Shown one piece after another: positions 53,944 to 60,441 of a stretch of 64,000 nucleotides of DNA. Numbering within the stretch: position 1 is the first letter of the stretch; each line of letters begins with the position of its first letter. The stretch lies in assembly GCA_002255985.1 (NCBI GenBank), contig NKIR01000014.1, positions 3,919 through 67,918 of the forward strand, given 5' to 3'. The translations under genes were made by a program, and so were the position numbers. A model generated the notes under the pieces. That model saw only the letters and a list, made by a program, of their open reading frames with translations, had not been told where the DNA came from and made no database searches. Source of the stretch: Sphingomonadaceae bacterium PASS1 (GTDB lineage Bacteria > Pseudomonadota > Alphaproteobacteria > Sphingomonadales > Sphingomonadaceae).

Positions 53944-53991
53944 TTAAGAAACCTTTTGCTAAACCCCCGACAGACTAGGGAGAACAAAGAC

Positions 53992-55053
53992 ATGCTTTTT
54001 TATTCGGTGTTGGCGCTAGCATCAATTGTGGCCGAAACAAACGCCGAAAAACCTGCGCCTCCTCCTCCGGTTATCATGGTGCCCTCGGTCCGCTCTGTTT
54101 CTACACCCGCACCCGAAAAGGGACGGGAAAGATCGCCAATACCCAAAAATAATCCCGGCACTTGGGCAAACACGGGTGATTATCCACGTCTCGCGCTGCG
54201 CGAATTCCGTGAAGGAATAACGGGATTTACAGTAGATGTGTCTGTCGATGGACGTGTGACCAAATGTGCGATCACCAGCAGTAGCAGACATGCTGACCTC
54301 GATAAGGTAACGTGCGATAATGTTACGGCGCGTGCCCAATTTTATCCGGGGAAGGATAAAAATGGCGTTGCGACCACCGGCAGCTATTCGAACCGCGTTC
54401 GCTGGCAAATACCGGAAGTTTTGAGCATGGCATCAATGCCTATAATAACCGAAAGTCTACCGCGTCCGCCAAAGCCGTCAAATAGAGCGCAGCTAACGAT
54501 ACCTACCGACAAATACCCTGCTGCGGCTTTGGCCGAAGGAAAACAGGGACAGACAACGTTTACGCTCAATGTCGACAGCACTGGAAAGGTTTTAGATTGT
54601 TCGGTTACCGTCAGCAGCAAGGCTCCCGAATTGGACCAACAAGCATGTGCACTTGCACGCGATTGGAGTTTTGACCCCGCGTTGGATGCCGATGGAGCGC
54701 CATCTTCAGGGAAGAGCGCGCATACGCTATATTGGCGGCTTCCGAAACGTGCTGCCGCTACATCTATGAACCCTCGGCGTCTCCGCTCAAATCCCTTTGA
54801 AAAGCCCGGTTCCATTGGCCTAACATTTGACATTGACGCGACTGGTAAGATGACGCGTTGCGAAGCGGAGAGCGAAGGCGCGCTCTTTGCTCAAAGGCCT
54901 GATAAGAACTTCTTGGATATAGTCTGCTCAGGTATTGGGAAGCGTGATGTCGCTCCGTTTCTGGATAGTGACGGCAAGCCACAGGCCAAACGCATCAAGT
55001 TCCGGATGTCGGTGGAGCATGAAGACCTTAAGACAGGCGCGGCCAGTAAGTAG
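53992..55053 (+). CDS. Protein with tandem TonB C-terminal domains
   Basis: Signal-like N-terminus, Pro-rich linker, two repeats of YP..A..E...G.T.F.(V/L).V...G.V..C.(I/V)T.SS....LD...C. Confidence 0.8.
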   Translation: MLFYSVLALASIVAETNAEKPAPPPPVIMVPSVRSVSTPAPEKGRERSPIPKNNPGTWANTGDYPRLALREFREGITGFTVDVSVDGRVTKCAITSSSRHADLDKVTCDNVTARAQFYPGKDKNGVATTGSYSNRVRWQIPEVLSMASMPIITESLPRPPKPSNRAQLTIPTDKYPAAALAEGKQGQTTFTLNVDSTGKVLDCSVTVSSKAPELDQQACALARDWSFDPALDADGAPSSGKSAHTLYWRLPKRAAATSMNPRRLRSNPFEKPGSIGLTFDIDATGKMTRCEAESEGALFAQRPDKNFLDIVCSGIGKRDVAPFLDSDGKPQAKRIKFRMSVEHEDLKTGAASK

Positions 55054-55125
55054 GCAGTGCGCCTTCGCTGTGGACTTTGCCGCCGTGGCTAACTATATCC
55101 GCAGCAGCACCGAACAGGGCCATAT

Positions 55126-55398
55126 ATGCGCATATTGATTTATCTACTGGCGATGTTGAGCGGGTTTTCCGCTGCGGATGCTGCGCGCCCCGTTTCCTCA
55201 TCGTCTGCGTCAGTAGATTTGGCTGCGGTTCAGGCCTATGTCACGGCTGCTGTTCAGGAAGCGGATAATGCGTTTGAGCAGCCGGTGCATGTGACGCCGA
55301 CTGCGCGCGTGCACCTTATGCCAGTCGATGGCAGCGTCGCGTTCGTCGCATTGGTACCTGATACGCCCGTTTACCGGCACGACCTCATTTTAGGGTAG
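55126..55398 (+). CDS. 90-aa signal-peptide ORF upstream of secA
   Basis: [19 protein letters not shown] signal peptide; co-oriented, ends 89 nt before the secA ATG. Confidence 0.7.
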
Positions 55399-55487
55399 GG
55401 CATCTCACCCGCTGCGGTGCACCTTTTTTATACCCTATTTCGCGCCAGCTTGCGCGCGTCTCCCACATGATTTCAAAGGAATTAGTT

Positions 55488-58217
55488 ATGTTCGGCGGAA
55501 TTGCCAAAGCCCTGTTTGGGTCATCCAACGACCGTTACGTCAAATCGATCATGAAGATCGTCGACAAGATCAACGCGCTCGAAGCCGAAATTTCAGTCAT
55601 GGATGACGAGCGGTTGAAGGGGCAGACCCAGATTTTTCGTGACCGCCTTGCTGCCGGCGAAACGCTGGACGACATTTTGCCTGAGGCATTTGCCACGGTA
55701 CGTGAGGCGTCGAAGCGCGTCATGGGTATGCGCCATTTCGATGTGCAGATGGTTGGCGGCATCGTACTCCACCGCGGAGAGATTGCCGAAATGCGCACCG
55801 GTGAAGGCAAGACCCTGACCGAGACTTTGGCGTGCTATCTGAACGCGATCGAAGGCAAGGGTGTGCACGTTGTAACCGTGAACGACTATCTTGCGCGCCG
55901 TGACGCCGAATGGATGAGCAAGATTTACGGCTTTCTTGGGCTGACCACGGGTGTTGTTGTTCCGAACATTCCCGAGCATGAACGCCGTGCCGCTTATGAC
56001 AGTGATATCACCTACGCGACCAACAATGAGCTTGGTTTCGACTATTTGCGCGACAACATGAAATATGAACGCGCACAGATGGTACAGCGTCCATTTAACT
56101 TTGCGATCGTGGACGAAGTGGACTCGATCCTAGTCGATGAAGCGCGGACACCGCTGATTATCTCGGGCCCGACCGATGATAAGTCAGAATTGTATATGCA
56201 GGTGCATGCTGTTGTCCTTCAACTCGACGATGGCGATTATGAAAAAGACGAAAAGAGCCGCAATGTCACGTTGACCGAGGACGGCACCGAAAAGGCTGAG
56301 CGCTTGCTTGAGGGTGCAGGGTTGCTGACCGGCTCCAACCTGTATGATTATGAAAACACATTGGTTGTGCACCATCTGGATCAGGCACTCAAAGCCAATG
56401 TGATGTTCAAGCGCGACATTGATTACATCGTCAAAGATGGCAAGGTCATCATCATCGATGAATTCACAGGCCGCATGATGGATGGACGCCGTTGGTCAAA
56501 TGGCCTGCATCAGGCCGTCGAAGCCAAAGAAGGCGTCGACATTGAGCCAGAGAACCAGACGCTCGCAACAATCACTTTCCAGAACTATTTCCGCATGTAT
56601 CCAAAATTGTCGGGCATGACCGGAACCGCGGCGACCGAAGCCGGCGAATTCCACGAGATTTACAAACTGAACGTCGTTGAAATTCCCACCAACGTGCCCG
56701 TGCAGCGTATTGATGAAGACGACCAGTTCTACAAAAATACGCAGGACAAATTTGGCGCCATTGCCAAGACCATTCGTGAAGCAAATGAGCGGGGCCAGCC
56801 CGTTTTGGTCGGTACTGTTTCCATCGAAAAATCCGAGTTGCTGTCCGAATTCCTGGAAAAGGAAAATGTGAAGCACAGCGTGCTCAACGCCCGTTTCCAC
56901 GAAAGCGAAGCGCATATTGTGGCGCAAGCTGGTCGTTTCGGCAGCGTAACAATTGCCACTAACATGGCTGGTCGCGGCACAGATATTCAGCTTGGCGGTA
57001 ACTTTGAATTCCGTTTGGAAGATGAATTGCGTGATGTGCCAGAAGGCCCGGAGCGCGATGCCGCAATCGAAGCATTGAAAGCCGAAATTGCTGCTGAAAA
57101 GGCAAAGGTTCTGGAAGCGGGCGGCTTGTTTGTTCTGGCGACAGAGCGGCATGAAAGTCGCCGTATCGATAACCAGCTACGTGGTCGTTCAGGCCGTCAG
57201 GGTGACCCCGGCCTCTCGCGCTTCTATCTATCGCTCGACGATGATCTTTTGCGCATATTCGGTTCGGAGACATTATTCTCGCGCATGATGAATTCCAGTC
57301 TGGAAGACGGAGAGGCCATCGGTGGTAAATGGTTGTCGAAAGCCATTGAAACCGCACAACGCAAGGTTGAAGCGCGGAACTACGATATCCGCAAGCAGCT
57401 GGTGGAATATGACGATGTCATGAACGACCAGCGCAAGGTGATTTACGACCAGCGCAGCGATATCATGGATGCAGAAGCCGTCGACGATATCATTGAGGAT
57501 ATGCTCAACGACACAGTCAACAATCTGGTTGGCGATCACTGCCCTGAAGGCACCTATCCGGAACAATGGGATGTTGATGGACTGAAGCAGAAATGTGCGG
57601 AAGTTTTGGGGCTTGCTCCGGACATCGATAGCTGGTTGCAGGAAGACGGCCTCGATCCCGAAGTGATCGAAACCCGAATTGCCGACCTGGCGACCGCCAG
57701 GTTTAAGGCAAAGGGCGCTGATCTTGACGAAACCGTATGGCGTCAGGTCGAAAAGAGCATTTTGCTGCAAACGCTCGACCATCATTGGAAAGAGCATTTG
57801 TCGACTTTGGATGCCCTGCGTCAGGTTATTTACTTGCGCGCCTATGCGCAGAAGAATCCCATCAATGAATATAAGCAGGAAGCATTTGGCCTGTTTGAAC
57901 GCATGTTGGGTGCCATTCGTGAAGGCGTAACCAAGACAATCGCGACCAATGAATTCCGCGCAGAAGAAGAGCTCGTTCCGCCTCAACTGCCTGAATTGCC
58001 GGATTTCCTCACAACGCATATCGACCCGTTCACCGACGAAGATGACACCAATGACATCGATGCCGGTTCACTTGGGTTTGTCACGACGACGATCCCACGC
58101 CCAGCGATTGCATCGGGTTCAAACGACCCGTTTGCGGGCAATCCTGATTTGCGCCGTAACGACCCATGCCCTTGCGGTTCCGGGCAAAAGTATAAGCACT
58201 GTCACGGCGCATATTGA
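55488..58217 (+). CDS. secA: Preprotein translocase SecA
   Basis: [30 protein letters not shown]-terminal [13 protein letters not shown]. Confidence 0.98.
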
Positions 58218-58241: not shown

Positions 58242-58988
58242 ATGATCTGGTTGGCTGGACTCTTCGCTCTCGTCGCTTTTGTGTACGCCTCGGTCGGCTT
58301 TGGCGGGGGGTCGACCTATACGGCGTTGCTGGCGCTTTGGGGCGTTGATTATCGGCTGATCCCGGTCATTGCATTGTTATGCAATATCATTGTGGTGACA
58401 GGCGGCAGCATCCGCTTCGTACGTGCCGGGTTGGTGTCTTGGCCGCAAGTCATGCCGCTATTGCTGATATCCGCGCCACTCGCGTTCTTGGGCGGGCTTG
58501 TGCCGCTCAAGCAATGGGTTTTCCTGACTATCTTAGGCGGGGCATTGCTTGCGTCTGCCATTGCCCTGTTGCTTCAGCCTGAAAAGCTTTCGGCGCGTAC
58601 GCTGCCCAAGCCATTGCTGTTGGTAATTTCCGGCGGTGTCGGCCTGCTGGCTGGCTTGTCCGGGATTGGCGGCGGGATATTCATGGCACCGATATTGCAC
58701 CTTATCCGCTGGGCAGAGGCACGGCGCATTGCCGCCTTTGCGTCGCTCTACATATTGATCAATTCGGCCGCAGGGCTGGCAGGGCAGGTCATAAAAGCCG
58801 GTGCACAGTCGCTGGCATTGCCCGCGATGGAATATGGCCTGCTACTCGCGGCTGTGCTGGTCGGCGGGCAAATCGGAAGCATATTCGGAATGCGCTATCT
58901 GTCGCCGCGACTTCTGCGCACATTTACCGCAATATTGGTCGGTTACGCCGCGCTGCGGCTGCTTTGGCAGGCGCATGGGCTTTATTAA
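58242..58988 (+). CDS. TauE/SafE family exporter
   Basis: GFGGGSTY and GIGGGIF repeats, about 8 TM segments. Confidence 0.88.
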   Translation: MIWLAGLFALVAFVYASVGFGGGSTYTALLALWGVDYRLIPVIALLCNIIVVTGGSIRFVRAGLVSWPQVMPLLLISAPLAFLGGLVPLKQWVFLTILGGALLASAIALLLQPEKLSARTLPKPLLLVISGGVGLLAGLSGIGGGIFMAPILHLIRWAEARRIAAFASLYILINSAAGLAGQVIKAGAQSLALPAMEYGLLLAAVLVGGQIGSIFGMRYLSPRLLRTFTAILVGYAALRLLWQAHGLY

Positions 58989-59137: not shown

Positions 59138-59160
59138 AAAGTGTACCCAAAGTGTATCCC
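59138..59160 (+). repeat. Putative integrase arm-binding direct repeats
   Basis: AAAGTGTACCC-AAAGTGTATCCC tandem repeat, 30 bp before the integrase ATG. Confidence 0.6.
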
Positions 59161-59190
59161 GAGAGACCTTTCTCGGGCAGGGGTTCAACT

Positions 59191-60441
59191 ATGGCGCTAA
59201 TGACAGACTTGGCTATTCGGAACTGGAAGCCGACGAAGCCACGTGAGACAAAACCCTGTGGCGGGCGAGATGGGTTATACATTCGTGCTAACTCGGCCGG
59301 TGGCAAAGCGTTCTATTGGCGCAAAACGTCATTCTATCGATTGGGCGATTATCCAGAGCTTACACTGACAAAGGCGCGGGCAATGGCGGCCGTTTGTAAT
59401 GATCGAGCGCGGGCAGGTATAGCGCCTGAGGCAATCGTTGCAGCCTTACGAGGTACAACGGCTCTGGCTGATGTTGCTGACGCTGACGCTGAGGCGATAA
59501 TGGCCTTACCCAAGTCGCGTTTGCGAACAAAAGCTGCGGACACTGGAAAGCCAACATTCGATTGTGCATTCTTCGAGTTCTATGAGGCTTACGCCAAATC
59601 AAATCGCCAAGCGGGCCCCAGCCGTAAACAGCCACTCAGCCTGCATCGCGATCATGTCCCTCAAGCCCTAAAGCTGATGGCGATGGATGAGATCAAGCGA
59701 TCGGACATTTTCCCTTGGATGCTGAAGCTGCTCAAGGAGAAGCATGAGACGGGTCGCAGATTGCGCAATCAGTTGGAGCGCGTGTTCGAGTTTGCGATCA
59801 ACAATGGCTATTGCGATGCGAACCCAGTGCCCAATAGGCGGGCTTTTGAAATTAAGAAGCCGAAAGCCAATGCTCACGGCACCCTCGATTATACAAGGCT
59901 ACCTGACCTGTGGGCGTGGGTTGATACGCGTGATTTCTTGCCACAAACACGCGCTGCAATAAGGCTGCTTATGCTGTCGGCGCATCGTGTCAGTGTTGTC
60001 CTTGCTGCGCGCTGGGAGCATTTTGACCTTGAAGCCTGCACTTGGACTGTTCCAGCTAAGACTGACAATGAAACGCCGGGCTTAATGAAGTCGGGCAGGG
60101 CGCATACCATCACTCTACCGAGGGCGTTTTTGGATGAGCTAAAGGCTATGAAGCGCGATGAGCGTTTGCTTTTCCCCTCAACGTCAGGCCGCGGGCATCT
60201 GACAGAGAACGCCCTGCTAAAAGCGCTAAAGACCTATGATGAGGGTATCACCGCCCACGGGTTCAGGAATACCTTCAAAACTTGGGCGCGTTCTGTAGGC
60301 GTCGCTGACTGGATAGCAGATGCATATGTGGACCATAGTCTGAAGGGACTTGACGCATCATACCGCCGCGAAGATCCTGCGCGTGTTATCGCTGAATGTG
60401 CTGCAGTTACGGAGAGGTTGTACAAATATGTCCGTGGGTAA
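59191..60441 (+). CDS. P4-like tyrosine integrase with arm-binding domain
   Basis: LTD..IR..KP...DGLY arm domain; catalytic R (AHRVS), HGFR, H (VDHSL) and Y (ASYRR). Confidence 0.93.
   Translation: MALMTDLAIRNWKPTKPRETKPCGGRDGLYIRANSAGGKAFYWRKTSFYRLGDYPELTLTKARAMAAVCNDRARAGIAPEAIVAALRGTTALADVADADAEAIMALPKSRLRTKAADTGKPTFDCAFFEFYEAYAKSNRQAGPSRKQPLSLHRDHVPQALKLMAMDEIKRSDIFPWMLKLLKEKHETGRRLRNQLERVFEFAINNGYCDANPVPNRRAFEIKKPKANAHGTLDYTRLPDLWAWVDTRDFLPQTRAAIRLLMLSAHRVSVVLAARWEHFDLEACTWTVPAKTDNETPGLMKSGRAHTITLPRAFLDELKAMKRDERLLFPSTSGRGHLTENALLKALKTYDEGITAHGFRNTFKTWARSVGVADWIADAYVDHSLKGLDASYRREDPARVIAECAAVTERLYKYVRG

Follow-up and report, generated by a model that had tools for sequence, protein, structure and literature searches.

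A leader ORF upstream of secA in Sphingomonadaceae as a candidate secretion-monitoring arrest peptide

The window analysed here is a stretch of 64,000 nucleotides (nt) from Sphingomonadaceae bacterium PASS1, a Sphingorhabdus genome, and our subject is a 90-codon open reading frame (ORF), annotated as 'hypothetical protein' in the source records, that lies directly 5' of secA on the same strand. The balance of the evidence tips slightly towards this leader ORF encoding a new secretion-monitoring arrest peptide, which would stall the ribosome at or next to its own stop codon. We favour this reading because the ORF, where present, always lies 5' of secA, its pattern of selection is reversed, the distance from an acidic residue to the stop is fixed and the peptide has a 71-residue geometry from signal to C-terminus. 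The same reading draws on the avoidance of TGA as the stop and the preference for GAA as the last codon, on a promoter-like element that lies 5' of the ORF and is not seen in the ORF–secA gap, and on the lack of a confident fold. It is further favoured because the four features used to screen for monitoring substrates are present, stop-dependent arrest has a precedent, and the gap holds more C than G in 84 of 86 loci. The coding elements of the locus are as follows.

55126..55398, forward strand: leader ORF, 90 amino acids plus TAG, ATG start, candidate secretion-monitoring arrest peptide
55126..55182, forward strand: signal peptide, residues 1-19, with an AxA cleavage site, assigned by inspection
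55183..55362, forward strand: hypervariable spacer rich in Ala, Ser and Val, about residues 20-79
55363..55395, forward strand: conserved C-terminal tail, T80-P-V-Y-R-H-D86-L-I-L-G90
55396..55398, forward strand: TAG stop, at a fixed distance from D86
55488..58217, forward strand: secA, 909 amino acids (Pfam SecA_DEAD, 9.7e-131; also P-loop_SecA, SecA_SW, SecA_PP_bind and SEC-C)

The original prediction had described a 90-residue ORF with a Sec signal peptide 89 nt before secA, and this arrangement proved both correct and widely conserved. In the window, the gap runs from 55399 to 55487 and secA starts at the ATG at 55488; an in-frame ATG upstream of it, at 55467, is not a conserved start. A translated search found homologues of the leader ORF in all 24 sampled genomes of the genus, and in all 23 loci with enough sequence the secA start lies 87-126 nt downstream. 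The relatives include S. rigui DSM 29050 (88% identity), S. wooponensis and S. contaminans. Protein libraries added 59 close proteins, a profile search returned 71 representatives of 50%-identity clusters, and a scan of named genomes yielded 55 further loci. Among the Sphingorhabdus-type loci that contain the secA start, the ORF is directly 5' of secA in 91/91, a count that includes two loci missed by the script and added by eye, with a gap of 85-126 nt.

The survey was widened to 90 genera of the same GTDB family, with the region 5' of secA read in one genome per genus. A recognisable form of the leader is present in 47 of these genera, 40 of them with a canonical form, whose tail consensus is I-P-T-V-x-x-G-x-D-R-A-x-E-stop, and seven with a variant one. 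The variant subfamily (about 7/90 genera: L160, L154, L157, L115, L210, L151 and L166) is recognised by the N-terminus ELLLFLSALLxGLTG and by the tails ERRRE, EKRQE or ERRQV immediately before the stop, mostly with Glu, not Asp, at the position five codons before it. Beyond the family, 23 genomes that represent nine further families of the order all lacked the leader ORF.

The protein has three parts that evolve at very different rates. Its signal peptide, assigned by inspection, consists of a positively charged M-R n-region, a 13-residue hydrophobic core and the sequence A-D-A|A, with cleavage after A19, and residues 1-22 are almost invariant in the family alignments. The spacer that follows has almost no conserved column, and yet its length is held despite indels, so that the total protein ranges from 86 to 103 residues, with a mode of 90. 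About 60 residues separate A19 from T80, and 71 separate A19 from the last residue. The tail comprises the last 11-13 residues or so and follows the pattern [ST]-P-[VI]-x-R-x-D-x4-stop in Sphingorhabdus. In an alignment of 39 relatives, T80, P81 and D86 are invariant, while D79, V82, R84, I88 and L89 reach 90% conservation or more. The ratio of non-synonymous to synonymous substitution rates (dN/dS; pairwise Nei-Gojobori) is 0.08 in the N-terminus, 0.49 in the middle and 0.26 in the tail, values obtained with dS above 1, that is, with saturated synonymous sites. Third codon positions are free to vary in both the signal peptide and the tail and, together with the dN/dS values, this indicates selection on the amino acids. 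Conservation of the C-terminus and of the spacing, on which the original idea depended, is thus borne out, since the tail is conserved as protein amid synonymous codon changes and the length, the spacing and the position 5' of secA are all kept. A cleavable signal that is the best conserved part, joined to a mature part that is the worst, is the reverse of what the sequence of an ordinary exported protein looks like. AlphaFold2, run with the family alignment, gave a mean predicted local distance difference test score (pLDDT) of 58 and a predicted template modelling score (pTM) of 0.25, with no confident fold. A six-frame translation of the genome holds no other copy of the tail motif, for instance before secDF or yidC; the sole match is the ORF itself.

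The tail is tied to the stop codon with unusual precision. Every canonical member and most variants have an acidic residue at precisely the fifth codon ahead of the stop, although indels are frequent in the spacer. The stop itself is biased: TAG occurs in 68 of 92 loci, TAA in 23 and TGA in only one, while long ORFs of the window genome end in TGA in 45% of cases, TAA in 38% and TAG in 17%. A rough FastTree phylogeny built from SecA N-termini requires at least 19 switches of stop codon, a single one of them to TGA. In other genera, the final Glu codon is GAA in 33/36 cases, compared with 46% of the Glu codons in secA at the same loci; shared ancestry is only partly corrected for in these stop-codon and GAA statistics. 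The last codons are also conserved at the nucleotide level across L116-L220, as GAC CGC GCS nnC GAA TAG, often followed by CGCG or GCGC. The two biases point to a constraint on the termination step, in which the P site would hold a Glu tRNA and the A site UAG or UAA, the two codons that release factor 1 recognises. The alternative is an RNA motif at that same spot.

Two further elements precede the ORF, and both functions are putative.

55070..55098, forward strand: promoter-like element, with a -35 box GTGGAC at 55070-55075, a 17-nt spacer and a -10 box CTATAT at 55093-55098
55114..55119, forward strand: weak Shine-Dalgarno-like element ACAGGG, 6 nt before the ORF start; Sphingorhabdus loci share the conserved sequence AACAGGGC

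The arrangement GGAC-N17-CTATAT resembles the alphaproteobacterial sigma-70 consensus. A scan of the window with a strict E. coli-type consensus returned neither a promoter nor a terminator. The pattern GAC-N16-18-nTAnnT lies 5' of the ORF in 59 of 86 loci, compared with 1.5% of shuffles, and the same pattern, sought as a second promoter between the ORF and secA, occurs in only 1 of 86 gaps. We infer that secA is transcribed with the leader ORF as its mRNA leader. The distance from the -10 box to the leader start is 27 nt in Sphingorhabdus, where the ACAGGG element is also present. In many other genera (L184, L193, L156, L180 and others), a -10 box CTATnT ends 9-10 nt before the leader start codon; given so short a distance, the leader may be translated there from a leaderless or nearly leaderless mRNA.

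We compared the leader ORF with databases and with the known arrest peptides. It has no match in Pfam, NCBIfam or PDB sequences, and it contains none of the motifs GIRAGP, RAPP, RGPP, LPPP, KYxIW, NSP/NAP-stop or DGMK-stop. The original prediction had likewise called known arrest motifs absent, and indeed PP, RAPP, RGPP and GIRAGP are all missing from the ORF. We found no paper linking sphingomonads to arrest peptides in the literature searched. The tail motif is absent from the main text and the supplementary text searched of Fujiwara et al. 2024 (PMC10987492), where Sphingomonadales figure in the genome list only and no class accommodates the leader ORF, and the main text of Sakiyama et al. 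2021 (PMC7897499) contains neither the motif nor any mention of sphingomonads. The in-silico criteria for monitoring substrates described in the text of Fujiwara et al. 2024 (PMC10987492) are a small upstream ORF (uORF) of secA, secDF or yidC, an N-terminal signal or transmembrane segment, a conserved C-terminus and a spacer of more than 30 residues. All four are found in the leader ORF, the signal being recognised by inspection.

Like SecM, the leader ORF sits directly 5' of secA in the same orientation, begins with a Sec signal peptide and carries, after a spacer of little conservation, a conserved segment at the C-terminal end close to the stop. Its 71 residues from signal to C-terminus equal the median of the short SecM class as given in the text of PMC10987492. 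However, the two have no sequence similarity (no Pfam SecM match at E up to 1 and no match to a nascent chain in PDB), the arrest motif FxxxxWIxxxxGIRAGP is absent here, and the leader ORF lacks a conserved helix that sequesters the secA Shine-Dalgarno sequence. SecM belongs to Gammaproteobacteria, whereas the leader ORF is alphaproteobacterial. Within Alphaproteobacteria, the uORF ApdP likewise lies upstream of a gene for a Sec component, bears a localisation signal at its N-terminus and is conserved towards its C-terminus (PMC7897499), but it carries R-A-P-P and precedes secDF2, whereas the leader ORF has no Pro-Pro and precedes secA. More generally, the R/Q/H-A/G-P-P or RAPG motif of the RAPP-like class (ApdA, ApdP, ApcA, RQH) is not present in the leader ORF.

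The closest precedent for arrest at a stop codon comes from the stop-codon-dependent peptides (uA_NSP-stop type) encoded upstream of sec genes, in which, according to the text of PMC10987492, the stop itself is needed and residues -5, -3 and -1 matter. Both these peptides and the leader peptide are encoded by uORFs of sec genes, carry a localisation signal and have a conserved motif whose end coincides with the stop codon, and the invariant position of the leader ORF is -5. As described in that text, they end in Pro or Lys and come from Bacteroidota and Firmicutes, whereas the leader family ends in Gly, Glu, Gln, Ala, Ser or Thr and comes from Sphingomonadaceae. Neither the C-terminal Pro (NSP, NAP) nor the DGMK motif is found in the leader family, and a strong UAG/UAA preference such as that of the leader family is not mentioned for those peptides in the text of PMC10987492.

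A different kind of likeness is offered by TnaC of the E. coli tna operon, where stalling at the leader's own stop is specific to one release factor and the ribosome masks downstream RNA from Rho. TnaC senses free tryptophan, has no signal peptide and uses UGA and release factor 2. The leader ORF may be a functional analogue, with its biased stop type and a gap of 85-126 nt that has more C than G in 84/86 loci; its dependence on Rho would be part of that analogy. The two nevertheless differ in their unrelated sequences, in the tryptophan input of TnaC, in its lack of a signal peptide and in its use of UGA and release factor 2.

In the mechanism that we propose, transcription would begin at the conserved promoter just 5' of the leader ORF and the 90-residue peptide would be made, its signal peptide already out of the ribosome when the last 11-13 residues (TPVxRxD-x4) occupy the upper exit tunnel. 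The tail, with Asp five residues from the end, would then slow or block the ribosome at or beside UAG/UAA, a termination-stage stall that would probably involve release factor 1. Engagement and pulling of the signal peptide by the Sec machinery would release the stall, whereas under poor export the ribosome would stay at the end of the ORF. The stalled ribosome would raise secA expression in cis, though not by unmasking the ribosome-binding site; candidate routes are the shielding of the C-rich, G-poor gap from Rho or nucleases, as in TnaC, or the blocking of a hairpin that begins 6-12 nt after the stop. What the comparison shows is conservation, anatomy, the pattern of selection, the stop-codon bias and the position of the promoter-like element; that the ribosome stalls, where it does so, that export frees it and that secA responds are steps that we infer. 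A more specific form of this proposal is held only tentatively and is, taken whole, rather doubtful: a new Sphingomonadaceae class of monitor in which the tail with Asp at -5 blocks release factor 1 termination at UAG/UAA and the parked ribosome shields a C-rich leader from Rho or nucleases, combining a TnaC-like output with a Sec-sensing input.

Several observations weigh against the arrest-peptide reading. The complete genome G131 (L144), placed in the same genus, has a secA whose N-terminus is 81% identical but no leader ORF 5' of it, which shows that members of the genus can lose the element. No recognisable form is present in 43 of the 90 surveyed genera, of which 34 have no candidate ORF, with secA coming after trxA, argJ or other genes, and nine have unrelated ORFs only. 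There is no PP dipeptide in the 90 residues or in the family tails, and no Pro in the last nine residues; the tail carries none of the Pro-rich motifs known from proven arrest peptides. The four residues after the Asp depend on the clade (IILG here, RARE or RAxE elsewhere), which would be odd if they contacted the peptidyl-transferase centre. To these must be added the residual effect of shared ancestry on the stop and GAA statistics, and the RNA between the ORF and secA, which contains the following elements.

55391..55437, forward strand: stem over the last codons and the stop, 55391-55397 with 55431-55437, enclosing hairpin H1 (CACC 55406-55409/GGTG 55416-55419) and a T6 run at 55424-55429
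55441..55458, forward strand: GC-rich hairpin H2 (CGCGC ... GCGCG), 91% paired and invariant in 13 close relatives
55475..55481, forward strand: secA Shine-Dalgarno sequence AAAGGAA, conserved in the alignment, in an A/U-rich stretch with no conserved pairing

Locally, this RNA is structured. The original prediction had noted that TAGGGTA at 55391-55397 can pair with TACCCTA at 55431-55437; the coordinates are right, the second is the exact reverse complement of the first, and in 13 close relatives four pairs of this outer stop-spanning helix are changed on both sides, which keeps the helix through compensatory changes. H1 is 90% paired and covaries in the same relatives, and other lineages have a different GC hairpin at the position of H2. 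Rfam returned no match. The points against the arrest-peptide reading appear when the family is considered as a whole. We computed the opening energy of secA positions -15 to +3 in 86 loci, once for the free RNA and once with a ribosome footprint placed at the stop or the Asp codon: the two differed by a median of 0.0 kcal/mol, and by more than 1 kcal/mol in only 9 of the 86. The last five codons and stop have 7.2 expected pairs with the first 50 nt of the gap, compared with 7.6 for shuffled gaps, and no conserved RNA switch joins the end of the ORF to the start of secA. A hairpin holding the stop codon finds no support across the family, as its pairing does not rise above that of shuffled gaps, although the local Sphingorhabdus helix does covary. 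A hairpin begins 6-12 nt 3' of the stop in most loci. Terminator-like hairpins (at least four T in six) occur in 16/46 and 10/40 loci, compared with 6-7% of shuffles, and in a strict form in five and two loci; attenuation by an intrinsic terminator was rejected as a general mechanism, since such hairpins are enriched but remain a minority, and this too counts against the reading. The excess of C over G in the gap is compatible with a loading site for Rho.

Four other explanations of the leader ORF were weighed. The same median of 0.0 kcal/mol over 86 loci led us to reject SecM-type unmasking of the secA ribosome-binding site as a general mechanism, and it bears on the explanation nearest to the original prediction, that an elongation stall melts a helix and frees the secA Shine-Dalgarno sequence from CCTTT at 55422-55426. 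We consider this improbable. Both complementary pairs do exist in the window, and the stop-spanning helix covaries in close relatives. Yet the pairing of CCTTT with AAAGG at 55475-55479 is found in only 61% of cells of the alignment, and 7-8 of the 13 close relatives have lost its three U-A pairs, so that this pairing has no support as a conserved element; in the window, the predicted opening energy of the secA start barely shifts with a ribosome at the ORF end, the two values being 5.28 and 4.95 kcal/mol. The idea of a SecM-like monitor survives comparison across genomes, whereas the anti-Shine-Dalgarno pairing proposed as its mechanism finds no support. Another explanation holds that the leader matters only for being translated, with no sensing of secretion, by protecting the 5'-terminal part of the secA mRNA from Rho or nucleases or by fixing the basal level of secA expression. 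The promoter-like element 5' of the ORF, with none seen in the gap, and the C-rich, G-poor gap would suit it, but it leaves the conservation of the signal peptide and tail, the fixed distance from Asp to stop and the constrained spacer length without an explanation, and we regard it as decidedly unlikely.

Another reading is that the product is a short peptide, exported or anchored in the membrane, with a role in trans as, for instance, a Sec accessory factor or a periplasmic signal; it would merely share the operon of secA, and its C-terminal motif would be a binding or processing site. The signal peptide (by inspection) and the co-location with secA agree with this, and a conserved stretch of 11-13 residues at the C-terminus might serve as a short linear motif for interaction. 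It is nonetheless unlikely, given that the signal to be cleaved off is the most conserved part, that the mature part is hypervariable and gave no confident fold, that a bias in stop type and last codon is unexpected for a motif acting after release, and that the motif is found nowhere else in the genome. The signal-peptide leader might also, without any arrest, direct the secA mRNA to the membrane during translation and thereby place SecA synthesis beside the translocon. A highly conserved signal peptide on the same transcript as secA is what such a role would call for, but the conserved tail, the fixed position of the stop and the stop-codon bias would go unexplained, and SecA is a soluble cytoplasmic ATPase; we find this very improbable.

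The genes around the locus vary. Between argJ, on the reverse strand, and the leader ORF, the window encodes a 365-residue protein with two TonB_C domains (53956-55053, forward strand; Pfam 8e-29, two stretches), a position next to the leader ORF that is taken by different genes in other genera. On the 3' side of secA lie a permease of the TauE/SafE family (58242-58988, forward strand; Pfam 1.9e-28), a low-GC stretch (0.45) and a 429-residue ORF (59152-60441, forward strand). Among genera without the leader ORF (L152, L203 and L150 are examples), several have a thioredoxin gene on the same strand (…VLVDFWAEWCGPC…) before secA, and in others argJ lies there on the opposite strand and is visible through antisense frames only.

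Feedback on secA by a stalling leader is a textbook case, known mainly from Gammaproteobacteria through SecM. Recent screens have shown secretion monitors to be patchy in distribution and built on few motif types, mostly RAPP-like. If the leader ORF is indeed an arrest peptide, this family of about half of the sampled genera, with its Pro-poor tail, its acidic residue fixed five codons from the stop and its strong preference for UAG/UAA, would show nascent chains acting on the ribosome by a new means, possibly during termination by release factor 1. As the SecM-type RNA switch is missing, stalling would have to reach secA expression by a new output route as well, and the tail would become a new arrest module for force-sensing experiments.

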